NCBI GenBank assembly: GCA_036444275.1
Contig: JAZGAD010000033.1
Span: 1 to 64,000, forward strand
DNA: 64,000 bases
Source: Candidatus Hydrothermarchaeales archaeon
GTDB taxonomy: Archaea; Hydrothermarchaeota; Hydrothermarchaeia; Hydrothermarchaeales; JAZGAD01
Reading direction: 5' to 3'
Position numbers and translations under genes: made by a program. How positions within the stretch are numbered: position 1 is the first letter of the stretch; every line of letters begins with the position of its first letter. The notes under the pieces were generated by a model that searched no databases, was not told where the DNA came from, and saw only the letters and a program-made list of their open reading frames with translations. Positions 4,218-59,565 of this stretch are shown piece after piece.

Positions 4218-4967
4218 TTATCTCTTCTCTGTGGTGAATTTAATGATTCCAACTATAAGTAGTCCCAGTATCCATGTCAAAAGCTTTATTATTTGGGCAA
4301 AAACATCCTGGAGGGTTTTTCCCTCAAGCATAACCTTCCTCAAGCTTTCATTAGCCAATGTTATAGGTGAATTAGTCGCAATTTGTCCCAATAGCGAGGG
4401 CATATCTATGACAGGAATCAAGTCACCACTCAGAACCAAAAGAATGAGAACTACAAATGGAACCAGCTGCACCGCCTGCTCCTTTGTTTTTGTGAACACC
4501 GAGAATAACAGACCCAGTAGTAAACCAACCAAAGAGAGCATGAAGAGCAACAAGAGAAATACGTATAGGCTTCCTTTCATCGTCATGTTATAATATTCCC
4601 CAACACCGAGAAATAGAACGCATTGAATTAATGAGATCACTACGCCTGCAAGAAATTTACCCAGAAACATACCTGACTTAGATATCGCCAACAAATCCCT
4701 ATCTAGTGTACCATAGGGTGCTCTTTCCCCCACGATCCGTAGGACCATCAACTGCGTTGAGATGAATATCATGGACGTCGAGAAGATGAGGGATGCATAA
4801 AAGTCGAAATATGTATATCCATAGCAAAAAGAACAATCTGCCGCTCCTGCTTCTGCCAATACAACTCCGATCATTATAGGAATAAGGAGGTGGGAAAAGA
4901 AGCGGGTGTTACTCTCAAGGATATGCCTCATCTCAAGGCGAAAAGCCTTCCCAAGTCCCTGCATCAC
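4218..4967 (-). CDS. ABC-2 type permease
   Basis: About 6 TM segments; ER..GTLDR and LSG.LIP motifs; ATGA overlap with upstream ATPase fusion. Confidence 0.85.
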   Translation of the reverse strand: MMQGLGKAFRLEMRHILESNTRFFSHLLIPIMIGVVLAEAGAADCSFCYGYTYFDFYASLIFSTSMIFISTQLMVLRIVGERAPYGTLDRDLLAISKSGMFLGKFLAGVVISLIQCVLFLGVGEYYNMTMKGSLYVFLLLLFMLSLVGLLLGLLFSVFTKTKEQAVQLVPFVVLILLVLSGDLIPVIDMPSLLGQIATNSPITLANESLRKVMLEGKTLQDVFAQIIKLLTWILGLLIVGIIKFTTEKR

Positions 4968-57343: not shown

Positions 57344-57814
57344 ATACCTCCCTCTCAAATACTGGTTCCTTATTTAACCTTTCCCTTGAGAGTGGCTTTG
57401 CACCCAAATACTAGATTTCGTGTTAATAAAAGTGCAAAATAAGCTTTGCTACTAATCTCTCTTTTTCAGCGTACTTTAAGAGTAAATAGCGACTTTGATA
57501 GTAGAATATTTATAATATGAACGCTAATATACTACGTAAGAATGAAGCTTTCTCAGAATTATAGGGGGTGGGAAAAGAAGGTTTGCCCATATGTTCATGT
57601 AACCATAAGCCTAATATATGCAGTATAGAGTGTTGGAACTACAAAATGAGCTTTAAATCAAAAACTTTATATGTATCCACTCTGCTAAATCTAGGTCTAA
57701 GAATGATTAAAGATAGACGGAGGTCTAGTGAGGTTATGCTGGGTATAGCGGGACTATTCTATATTTTTATGACCTCATCTCACTTCCAAACACCCCTTAG
57801 GAGGTTATGTTTCG

Positions 57815-58753
57815 ATGGTACCCATTAGAGTGGCTGTTTTAGGGCCGGCAGGAACATACACAGAAAAAGTAGCTCAAGAGAAATGGAAAAACCCTGCGCT
57901 ACATTATTGTGAAAACATACCTAAAGTATTCAAATACATGGCTGATGGGGAGGCAGAGTATGGAATCGTTCCCATTGAAGACTCAGCAGAAGGAGATGTC
58001 AACATCACCCTCGATTTACTCAGGGATTACGATTTTTATATAGTAGGAGAATCATTTACTGAAGTAACCCATACTTTGCTCGGAAAAAAAGACGAAAAAA
58101 CCCTTAAAAAAATTGGGTCTCATCCACAAGCATTAGCACATTGTCGGAAGTATTTGGAGATATCTTTTCCAGATATAGAGCAGGAACTTGAGCCGAGTAC
58201 AGCCTTTGCAGCAAAAAAAGCTTCAATGGATGTTACTTATGGAGCGATTGCTGATGAAAGAAATGCTGGAATTTATGGTTTGACGGTGTTAGCTAGAGAA
58301 ATTCACGACTGGGGAAGTAATTTAACTAGATTCATTACTATTGCACCAAAACCTATAACACCAACTGGCCGAGCCAAAACATCAATTATAGTTTACCCTC
58401 GTGATGACAAGCCTGGGCAGCTCTTCAGTGTTTTAAAAGAATTTTCAGAAAGAGAAATCAATCTAACTAAAATTGTATCACGTCCTTCAAGAGGACGGAT
58501 AGAGGAGAATGTTTTTTATATCGATTTTGAAGGTAACCAAACAGATTCGGATATAAAAAGTGTGTTAGAGAATATTGAGAACCTAGATACGATTAGTGCA
58601 ATTAGGATATTTGGGTCATATCCATATAGTCCTCCAGATTCTAAGCCTAAAGAAGTCGTGGAAACTGTAAAGGAACCAGAATCTGCAACTCTTTTTGCCC
58701 GACCGTTCGAGTTTTGGGACAATCCAGAGGACAAAATTTATGAGTCGTTATAG
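57815..58753 (+). CDS. pheA: Prephenate dehydratase-ACT with about 40-aa antitoxin-like C-terminal tail
   Basis: LGPAGTYTE, PIEDS.EG, SHPQALAHC, N.TRF, NLTKI.SRP, F.IDFEG, GSYP; tail ...PFEFWDNPEDKIYESL. Confidence 0.85.
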   Translation: MVPIRVAVLGPAGTYTEKVAQEKWKNPALHYCENIPKVFKYMADGEAEYGIVPIEDSAEGDVNITLDLLRDYDFYIVGESFTEVTHTLLGKKDEKTLKKIGSHPQALAHCRKYLEISFPDIEQELEPSTAFAAKKASMDVTYGAIADERNAGIYGLTVLAREIHDWGSNLTRFITIAPKPITPTGRAKTSIIVYPRDDKPGQLFSVLKEFSEREINLTKIVSRPSRGRIEENVFYIDFEGNQTDSDIKSVLENIENLDTISAIRIFGSYPYSPPDSKPKEVVETVKEPESATLFARPFEFWDNPEDKIYESL

Positions 58754-59348
58754 GCAGGGAGATGTTGTTTTAATAGCTTTCCCTTTTACAGACCTTACCG
58801 ATAAAAAACCACGTCCTGTAGTTATAATATCTTCAGATTGGTATAATGATAGAAGGAAGGACATCATTGTTTCAGCAGTAACTTCACAAATCCCCACCAA
58901 TATAAGAAGAGACGAATTCTTAATTAATACGAAACGTGACCTCCACGCTAGTAGATTACCAAAACCTTTTGTAGTTAAATTAGGCAAAATAATGACTTTG
59001 GAAAAGCGTGATGTCATAAAGTCATTTGGTAGGCTTCCAGAGGACACAACTAGGAAAATAATCAAAAAATATTTCGATGTCTTAGGGCACCCCGAATATG
59101 CGTATGTTGAAAAAAAAGATGTTGAAGAATATCTGAGTGAACAAGAAAGCAAATTAAGGAGGATTTTTGGATTTGAGAAAGAAGAAAAAAAGAAACCTGA
59201 TTATTACTTCAAATCCCCAGAGTTTGATGAAACAAAAGTCATCCAAGAGCTATCTAAATTGAAAACAGATATGGATTGGGTTAAAAGACTGCTTTGGCTT
59301 ATAATCGGTTCCCTTATATGGTTAGTAAAAGCGAACCTTGGAAGCTGA
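58740..59348 (+). CDS. MazF/PemK-family toxin with coiled-coil plus TM C-terminal extension
   Basis: YRQGDVVLIAFPFTDL...KPRPVVIIS...TS, GRL; tail ELSKLKTDMDWVKRLLWLIIGSLIWLV; 14-nt overlap with pheA. Confidence 0.85.
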   Translation: MSRYRQGDVVLIAFPFTDLTDKKPRPVVIISSDWYNDRRKDIIVSAVTSQIPTNIRRDEFLINTKRDLHASRLPKPFVVKLGKIMTLEKRDVIKSFGRLPEDTTRKIIKKYFDVLGHPEYAYVEKKDVEEYLSEQESKLRRIFGFEKEEKKKPDYYFKSPEFDETKVIQELSKLKTDMDWVKRLLWLIIGSLIWLVKANLGS

Positions 59349-59565
59349 TTTGAGATCAATAAAGTGCGAAATTGGGTGCAACTCCCATCTCCATCATCTC
59401 GTGAATCAAGACCACTATGTTATGAGCTATCACCTTACATAGTAACTCGTTTTTCTGAGCAATAGGATTCTTTGATTTTAGGTGCAACCTTCTGAATAAA
59501 AGTGCAAAGCCCTTAAGAGTGGATAATACCTTTAAATTAAATGCAGCGATTTAACAAATATTACC

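Follow-up and report, generated by a model that had tools for sequence, protein, structure and literature searches.

How did the genes for a second prephenate dehydratase (PheA) and a MazF/PemK-like toxin come to lie between lysC and a rhomboid gene in a hydrothermarchaeal genome, and what is the block of DNA that carries them? The stretch analysed here, referred to as the window, comprises 64 kb of contig JAZGAD010000033.1 from a Candidatus Hydrothermarchaeales archaeon, and the assembly of its own genome (G000) amounts to 1.49 Mb and is 81% complete. The two genes occupy a low-GC block of 2,118 bp (57394-59511), which a preliminary description of the locus took to be a transposase-less cargo element built from stacked miniature ends. 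The analysis below indicates that the block is, with high probability, the fossil of a non-autonomous archaeal cargo transposon that is related to IS903 and carries a putative two-gene toxin-antitoxin module as its cargo.

The block is set apart from its surroundings by composition and by sharply defined termini. Its GC content is 0.33-0.42 compared with 0.45-0.52 in both flanks, and this foreign composition supports its arrival from elsewhere. The sequence GGCTTTGCAC at 57394-57403 recurs as its exact reverse complement at 59502-59511, so that the block has perfect 10-bp terminal inverted repeats; these are the only two matches to GGCTTTGCAC in the whole window, where 0.06 were expected, and none of 100 shuffled sequences reached two. 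Immediately outside the inverted repeats are the 9-mers CTTGAGAGT and CTTAAGAGT, which agree at eight of nine positions, a likeness that by our arithmetic has a chance probability of ~1e-4 for two fixed 9-mers. Further motifs resembling the termini occur within the block. AATAAAAGTGCAAA is found exactly at both 57425 and 59495, TTGCACCCAA at 57398 and its inverse at 59372 account for two of the three copies in the assembly, and a variant of the end motif at 59358-59370 and GGTGCAAC at 59481 are also present. The hexamer TTGCAC/GTGCAA has seven copies in the 2,118-bp element (0.71 expected), five of which are concentrated in the end zones, 220 bp in all, where 0.07 would be expected. The inverted repeats, flanking 9-mers, and internal end-like motifs reported in the preliminary description were thus all recovered from the sequence. 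Searches of the element region for structured RNAs and tRNAs yielded no Rfam matches at E values up to 0.1 and no ARAGORN genes.

Several of the internal motifs near the right end lie in the remnant of a transposase gene. Positions 59356-59487 encode, on the minus strand, the last 43 codons of a DDE transposase, which corrects the preliminary description: the block is not strictly transposase-less but retains about the final tenth of the gene. The relic is 81% identical to the C terminus of protein P0007 and corresponds to codons ~365-407, beginning beyond the Y-(2)-R-(3)-E-(6)-K region. In the sense of the transposase, the order of parts is L end (upstream of the gene), transposase, passenger slot, and R end (downstream), which is the order found in the rest of the family described below. 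The L-end repeat GTTGCACCTAAAAT joins codon ~365 directly (CTAAAATCAAAGAATCC, compared with CTTAAATCCAAGAATCC in a second relic on contig C54 of the same genome). This point of contact marks the junction of an internal deletion. At the other extremity of the relic, two repeat-like motifs at 59358-59385 lie inside the last codons (GVAPNFALY), and these motifs, including the 10-nt TTGCACCCAA match (GVAPNF), may be vestigial inner R-end repeats or may have arisen by chance in coding sequence.

Transposase remnants of this kind are the only traces of the family transposase in the 81%-complete assembly. A scan of the assembly with the family profile detected three C-terminal relics, covering profile positions 308-393, 354-394, and 347-393 of 398. 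The relic on contig C54 (G000:C54:2364-2591; 76 aa) matches PF01609 with an E value of 2.1e-8 and represents the C-terminal region of DDE_Tnp_1 with the motif YHKRSNVETTFHMLK; neither it nor the third relic (G000:C19:17883-18014) has recognisable transposon ends nearby. Used as a query across the order (35 genomes), the 76-aa sequence matched nothing but C-terminal pieces, in six genomes. Thus every transposase trace seen in the order is C-terminal, with three places in the genome of the window and the others in five further genomes (L022, L023, L024, L025, and L026).

Relatives of the transposase number at least 750 in the protein database. Most of the 120 listed are proteins of 390-415 aa from archaeal metagenome bins that match PF01609, and four of the 120 also have a precomputed match to SWIM (PF04434). 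The family transposase of ~400 aa combines an N-terminal Cys/His finger with a DDE_Tnp_1 core, and the L113 protein matches PF01609 with an E value of 6.9e-26. The ends of the elements were delineated from 80 loci taken around full-length transposases with 1.2-kb flanks, with end architecture judged by eye. The 9-nt terminal pattern is contained in 24 of these loci, and 14 of them show an R-type architecture downstream of the gene, consisting of RGCTTTGCAC(C/T)(T/C)AAA, ~17 nt, and two inverted ACTTTAGGTGCAGA copies. Whole-genome pattern searches in five genomes revealed a second end type upstream of the transposase, in which the same terminus is followed by two direct TGCACCTAAAGT repeats. 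The family as a whole can accordingly be described as having RGCTTTGCAC termini and two or three subterminal repeats of the TGCACCTAAAGT type, 12-13 bp long, in direct orientation at the end that lies upstream of the transposase and in inverted orientation at the end downstream of it. Other approaches were less informative. A search for 16-mer inverted repeats up to 350 bp from 40 full-length transposase genes returned weak, unrelated pairs only, because the elements carry cargo and their ends lie outside this zone. Counts of AAGTG[CT]AAA in the 80 loci did not discriminate, the matches in L082 being unrelated sequence, and a search for L ends through the duplication at the R end, up to 1.2 kb upstream, gave none that was convincing. 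In the full-text literature, judged from search results alone, we found no description of this transposon family.

Both ends of the block in the window belong to this family (Table 1). Alignment matches its left end to the R ends of four full elements and two miniature inverted-repeat transposable elements (MITEs), with 20 invariant columns, and its right end to the L ends of four full elements and the 68-bp MITE L117. The block therefore has one L-type and one R-type end in the family-correct orientation around the transposase relic, and each end keeps one subterminal repeat where full members have two. The terminal motif, which the preliminary description had suggested seeking elsewhere, is indeed present in other genomes, both in full transposons and in MITEs.

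Table 1. Features of the element in the window and delimited members of its family in other genomes.
Feature	Position or size	Strand	Detail
Left target-site duplication copy CTTGAGAGT	57385-57393		8/9 match to 59512-59520
R-type transposon end (downstream of transposase)	57394-57441		Terminal GGCTTTGCACCCAAAT; inverted subterminal repeat AATAAAAGTGCAAAAT (57425-57440)
Copy of promoter, 5' leader, and start region of a molybdopterin-oxidoreductase-like gene	57644-57741 (98 bp)	+	90% identity to G000:C48:64897-64993 (L002 1501-1597)
Second prephenate dehydratase (PDT) gene, PDT + ACT, 312 aa	57815-58753	+	PF00800 E 1.6e-49; ACT E 7.6e-8
MazF/PemK-like toxin gene, 202 aa	58740-59348	+	PF02452 E 2.6e-15, residues 5-107
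Transposase relic, last 43 codons and stop of a ~400-aa DDE (PF01609-type) transposase	59356-59487	-	Family profile E 2.9e-20, positions 354-394
L-type transposon end (upstream of transposase)	59470-59511		Terminal GGCTTTGCACTTTTATT (minus-strand reading); direct subterminal repeat GTTGCACCTAAAAT
Right target-site duplication copy CTTAAGAGT	59512-59520		Pairs with CTTGAGAGT
L113, full element	3,722 bp		Flanking 9-mers CCTGCGCCT, perfect
L114, full element	5,463 bp		Flanking 9-mers TCCATGATT, perfect
L115, full element	6,207 bp		Flanking 9-mers GGTAGGGAT, perfect
L116, fourth large end pair	7,582 bp		Flanking 9-mers without match
L117, MITE	68 bp		Flanking 9-mers GTCTCGGGA, perfect
L070, MITE	57 bp		Flanking 9-mers TCGACCAAA, perfect
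MITE-like pair inside L114	61 bp		Flanking 9-mers without match
G001:C2, MITE	66 bp		Perfect GCTCTGGGG duplication; pattern search of the 38 genomes of the class
G020:C153, MITE	66 bp		Flanked by TTAGGTAAC and TTGGGTAAC, 8/9; between nikR-like and transporter genes

The large members that could be delimited span 3.7-7.6 kb, and every one carries passenger genes. These encode a D12 DNA methyltransferase, type I-like methylase and specificity subunits, a fused restriction-methylase, a ParB-like protein, and a radical-SAM protein. The MITE in G020 was found with the left 47 bp of the element in the window as the query of a DNA search across 41 related genomes. At L114 (5536-6621), another family end follows directly past the duplication of the 5.46-kb element, and the 61-bp pair lies ~1 kb further; at this spot, members of the family have inserted next to or into one another.

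The position of the block between lysC and the rhomboid gene was compared with the lysC locus of 13 relatives, read from tblastn matches. In G012, G004, G021, and G020, lysC and the rhomboid gene are divergent neighbours separated by 54, 54, 55, and 51 bp, respectively, with no cassette in between, and the pheA genes of these four genomes are on other contigs. The same arrangement is found in G014, G007, and G005, judging by match coordinates alone, and 8 of the 13 relatives have no rhomboid gene within the fetched lysC locus. None of the 13 has pheA-mazF at the lysC site. Insertion between these two genes, as the preliminary description had it, thus agrees with the cassette-free arrangement of the four relatives. 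TATA-like boxes at 57368-57378 and 59530-59541 flank the element, so that a pair of back-to-back boxes has been split with one left to each gene. In all eight of the family insertion sites that we printed, an A/T-rich TATA-like stretch lies ~0-15 bp from the duplication, as judged by eye and with no statistical control. As a separate observation, L115 includes a 106-aa open reading frame (ORF) at 4428-4748 with a match to the TATA-binding protein (PF00352, E 8.6e-8), a curious passenger for a family that apparently lands beside TATA boxes.

Several observations weigh against reading the block as a single transposon inserted at this site. In silico removal of the element with one copy of the duplication leaves a spacer of 95 bp rather than 51-55 bp. 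The relatives compared are from other families, with 60-72% identity in LysC, so that the empty sites are those of four distant relatives and no near-identical empty site was found among them. The closest relative and only other genome of the same family, G001, offers a rhomboid deletion at the site instead of an empty site: there (L018, G001:C31, 3009-3140) lysC adjoins a HerA-like gene, and the last 18 codons of the rhomboid gene are left, fused to the upstream region of lysC, with the junction no more than ~2 bp from the target site of the window and in CTTT microhomology. The 43-aa relic alone gives no Pfam match. The assembly contains no intact family transposase and no second copy of the cassette, though it is 81% complete and repeats are often left unassembled. 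Within the family itself, the fourth large end pair (L116) and the 61-bp pair in L114 are not flanked by matching 9-mers. Public sequencing data also failed to provide a joint. Of four public runs, two contain a portion of the stretch, at word shares of 0.16 and 0.06, and no read or contig in these two joins across the element; in the run with the flanks at ~97-99% identity, the interior of the element is almost uncovered, and the missing coverage is not readable as absence.

The same runs contain fragments that touch the right end of the element. In runs X1 and X2, single contigs match the right end (59473-59512) and continue into other sequence, with loose ends at 59508 and 59512. One run contig carries the last 18 nt of the element followed by the rhomboid gene at ~97% identity. 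In another, ~16 nt separate the right-end repeat from AGCTTTGCTACTAA, a sequence that comes after the left end in the window; this hints at a cargo-less version of the element.

Taken together, the family-correct ends, the duplication, and the relic suggest the following history, modelled on the family and on IS903. The family transposase would bind the subterminal repeats and excise the element, which would then insert at a 9-bp staggered cut whose repair would produce the duplication. In the window, the target would have been the space between the back-to-back lysC and rhomboid promoters, with both TATA-like boxes left outside the element. A later internal deletion would have removed one L-end repeat together with transposase codons 1 to ~364, after which the copy could move only with a transposase supplied by a relative, and the duplication would since have gained its one mismatch. 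The passenger slot downstream of the transposase holds the pheA-mazF module, apparently driven by a copied host promoter, and the tail of PheA would act as a MazE-like antitoxin to the overlapping MazF endoribonuclease, so that a cell losing the cassette would be penalised. In this scheme, the ends, the duplication, the kinship with the family, the relic, the cassette-free sites of relatives, and the tail motif in common with MazE are observed; the cut-and-paste mechanism, the use of the promoter, the toxicity and its neutralisation, and the role in addiction are inferred.

We read the copy in the window as a fossil because the duplication has a mismatch, one subterminal repeat has been lost from each end, and only relics of the transposase remain. 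Alternatively, the cassette could still be active and be moved by a family transposase whose gene lies in co-resident DNA or in the fifth of the genome missing from the assembly. In favour of this, both ends have a perfect terminal 10 bp and have kept one subterminal repeat each, the incompleteness of the assembly leaves room for such a transposase, and single contigs in the two public runs join the same terminal sequence to other flanks, one of these runs holding lysC at ~98.8% identity. However, the features that mark the copy as a fossil, namely three C-terminal relics only with no second cassette copy, the mismatched duplication, and ends with one repeat fewer than those of full members, all speak against current activity, as does the lack of a joint across the element in the public runs. 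Continued activity is consequently unlikely, and mobilisation in trans, as proposed in the preliminary description, goes beyond what the three relics, the mismatch, and the shortened ends support.

Another way to arrive at such a structure would be for two or more independent MITEs to flank a resident pheA-mazF pair, or to be stacked, and so to mimic one element. Family MITEs of 57-68 bp do exist in relatives, and end-like motifs recur in the right 160 bp of the block. On the other hand, the two outer ends differ in type, L and R, and face as the ends of one element would, the shared 9-mer is on the outer flanks and not on the inner ones, and the apparent inner motifs at 59356-59487 belong to the 3' portion of a transposase gene that lies where members of the family normally have it. 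In addition, pheA-mazF is not resident at the site in the 13 relatives, and the whole block is low in GC. Such mimicry is very improbable. The motifs that the preliminary description regarded as stacked miniature ends are the normal subterminal repeats of the family, accompanied by a relic in standard position and orientation, and because the L end, relic, passenger slot, and R end follow one another in family order, the block is better described as a deletion derivative of a cargo transposon than as an assembly of miniature ends. That a site-specific recombinase inserted the block as a genomic islet, with the flanking 13-bp direct repeat CCCTT(G/A)AGAGTGG (one mismatch) as its attachment sites, is scarcely credible, since neither the block nor its borders contain an integrase gene, no tRNA is present, the inverted termini of the element account for four bases of the repeat, and the same termini occur in seven other elements flanked by unrelated 9-mers. 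This 13-bp repeat, singled out in the preliminary description, is present but is not a separate feature: it consists of the 9-bp duplication extended by the terminal GG/CC of the element, which happens to match the flanking CC/GG.

The reading of the block as a decayed cargo transposon directs attention to its cargo. The passenger pheA encodes a prephenate dehydratase with an ACT domain that retains the TRF and SRP motifs, which mark active enzymes, and that has a C-terminal tail of ~40 aa (about 58628-58750) ending in FEFWDNPEDKIYESL, the protein terminating in ...FARPFEFWDNPEDKIYESL. The native pheA of the genome (G000:C3) encodes a 275-aa protein that ends in ...GSYPKG and has no such tail. 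The start of mazF overlaps the end of pheA by 14 nt. Its product consists of a toxin domain (residues 1-118) and, behind it, an 82-aa extension. The closest solved chain is MazF6 (E 1.5e-5), and nine relatives share K23, R25, and P26 without exception, residues that likewise mark active enzymes. The extension (window 59100-59348) has no family match and is absent from the 120-aa relative in G027, and its hydrophobic end, WVKRLLWLIIGSLIWLV, could be a membrane helix. Upstream of pheA, the sole other ORF of at least 40 aa within the element is one of 86 aa (57568-57828); it was considered as a small antitoxin and rejected, as it has no Pfam match and spans the copied promoter.

The segment at 57644-57741 is a copy of sequence from the same genome, on another contig, where it precedes a gene for a Tat-signal molybdopterin-oxidoreductase-like protein; the copy reaches into the first codons of that gene, and a search of 41 genomes found it nowhere else. 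It includes the sequence AAAAACTTTATATGTATCC, which resembles a B recognition element and TATA box and points at pheA; the segment may act as the promoter of pheA. Cassette and lineage have therefore exchanged sequence, either around the time the cassette arrived or since.

A similar pair of genes exists without the transposon. In G027, which belongs to a different family within the order, a second pheA encodes a 315-aa protein ending in ...FSFWNNEEDRAYDSLY, with a 120-aa mazF 12 nt downstream (L124, G027:C127, 2333-3655). The PheA and MazF of this pair are 41% and 42% identical to those of the window, and no transposon ends are found within 7 kb of it. The two-gene module thus exists independently of the transposon, at a locus different from that in the window. 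The finding that would have refuted the preliminary description, pheA-mazF in the same place in relatives but lacking the ends, was not made, as the G027 pair lies elsewhere. Tailed PheA proteins are otherwise rare. A phmmer search over 1.84 billion representatives returned 11,839 PheA relatives, and among the best 150 of these the tail aligned in five (P0123, P0124, P0126, P0127, and P0137); a word search added P0122, and a region search gave two proteins. A scan of metagenome contigs with the tailed-PheA alignment produced one locus of 30% identity with no module context. The tail motif is conserved in eight tailed sequences, and F298, F300, W301, N303, D306, and Y309 are invariant in the seven that are full length.

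The end of the tail resembles the toxin-binding end of MazE antitoxins. The motif W-(D/E)-N-x-E-D-x-x-(W/Y) ends PheA both in the window and in G027 and also terminates the upstream proteins of four other MazFs, and the tail end FWDNPEDKIYESL is the motif that ends MazE antitoxins in the phylum. We read the upstream frames at 12 other MazF places in the phylum. In the five closest MazFs with a small upstream ORF, this ORF ends in FWENEVDEAWNTA, LWENPEDEVWDRV, LWENPEDEVWDTV, LWDNEEDSIWDEY, and DWLRPEEDEAWTDL, respectively, all related to the motif in PheA; two of the five small proteins match PF04014 (MazE_antitoxin) and one matches DUF2281. The remaining, more distant MazF places have other types of antitoxin, either AF2212-like or with tails ending in ...KVRYK. 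Because a related motif ends the MazE-type proteins upstream of MazFs in this phylum, we interpret the PheA tail as a putative MazE-type antitoxin tail, able to bind toxin, that has become attached to an enzyme.

A structural model of the complex is consistent with this interpretation. With two MazF(1-120) chains and PheA residues 262-312 as input and with our own alignments, the model scored 0.79, compared with 0.01 for the best of three controls, and the mark used for this score is reached by 116 of 157 solved complexes and by 2 of 215 mismatched pairs. Model runs agree in at least 65% of contacts, with a predicted local distance difference test value of at least 54 for the partner. The modelled interface places tail residues 293-312 against MazF residues 11-26, 46-51, and 74-83. 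The model thus supports binding of the tail to the toxin. The case also has weaknesses: solved MazE-MazF complexes exist and the high score may reflect likeness to them, the use of our own alignments means that the calibration of the score holds only roughly, and the PheA part stands in place of the usual DNA-binding domain of an antitoxin (AbrB/SpoVT or ribbon-helix-helix). Moreover, only two tailed PheA genes have been seen in context, both of them adjoining mazF, and the lability of the tail and the toxicity of MazF are presumed. Full-text literature searches, judged from the search results alone, returned no fusion of PheA with an antitoxin.

If the tail does bind MazF, the antitoxin could be a working, phenylalanine-regulated PDT + ACT enzyme, and release of MazF could be set by the amount, turnover, or ligand state of PheA, within an addiction module captured by a transposon. 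We advance this idea tentatively, as somewhat less than an even prospect. Were it true, a small clade of tailed PheA proteins (~5 clusters among 1.84 billion representatives, as counted in the best 150 of 11,839 relatives) would link aromatic amino-acid status to growth arrest, and a metabolic enzyme that doubles as an antitoxin would bear on how toxin-antitoxin systems sense the state of the cell. The element itself adds an intermediate to a decay series in an IS903-related archaeal family, which begins with full cargo transposons, continues with a cargo cassette that has lost its transposase, and ends with MITEs of 57-68 bp, and it indicates that the passengers of the family can include a toxin-antitoxin module besides restriction-modification genes. 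A decayed element alone is of moderate interest; the enzyme-fused antitoxin would be the less expected and more general point.

Among known mobile elements, the closest counterpart of the archaeal family is IS903. NF033579, an IS5-family model of NCBIfam, is the best model for two full-length family members, at 129.4 and 132 bits, which is under its 140-bit cut-off. The best tblastn matches of the family transposase among 72,556 plasmids are to IS903B, with 22% identity over 94% of the query and E values of 6e-7 to 1e-6. The IS903B copy has GGCTTTGTTGAATAAATC at both ends and shares its GGCTTTG start with the ends in the window, and PMC9769513 describes a 9-bp direct target repeat for IS903B. 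The DDE_Tnp_1 transposase and 9-bp target duplication are thus common to IS903 and the archaeal family, and the preliminary description was right to propose a non-autonomous cargo element with IS903-like GGCTTTG termini and a 9-bp duplication, which is preserved here at eight of nine positions. In contrast to IS903, the archaeal family has a transposase of ~400 aa with an added N-terminal Cys/His finger, and its ends bear two or three subterminal repeats arranged differently at the two ends. The IS903B copy spans ~1.06 kb between its ends and contains the transposase gene only, whereas the archaeal members carry passengers that look obligatory. The link between the archaeal family and IS903 therefore holds as a distant relationship, to judge from these sequence comparisons.

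Compared with a simple insertion sequence of ~1 kb, the copy in the window is 2.1 kb long and has two passenger genes without a working transposase. It shares its ends, 9-bp duplication, and passenger slot with the full members of its family, but these carry mainly restriction-modification cargo, and the window copy has lost the transposase and holds a toxin-antitoxin cargo in its 2.1 kb. Like a MITE, it has inverted termini and a target duplication, lacks a working transposase, and is an internal-deletion derivative of an autonomous element; unlike MITEs, which are non-coding and measure tens to a few hundred bp, it is 2,118 bp long with two intact genes. It is closer to the 'transporter IS' of ISfinder, minus the transposase.

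Toxin-antitoxin passengers are known from other transposons. According to Lima-Mendez et al. 2020 (PMC7157771), Tn3-family transposons carry toxin-antitoxin passenger genes that are proposed to stabilise the element. The Tn3 family differs from the one described here in transposase family, domain of life, and mechanism, and the antitoxins there are ordinary small proteins. The cargo itself resembles the MazE-MazF (PemI-PemK) systems in its PemK/MazF toxin domain, its overlapping upstream gene, and the acidic/aromatic tail on the upstream protein. It departs from them in the 82-aa extension of MazF and in the complete PDT + ACT enzyme that occupies the place of the DNA-binding domain.

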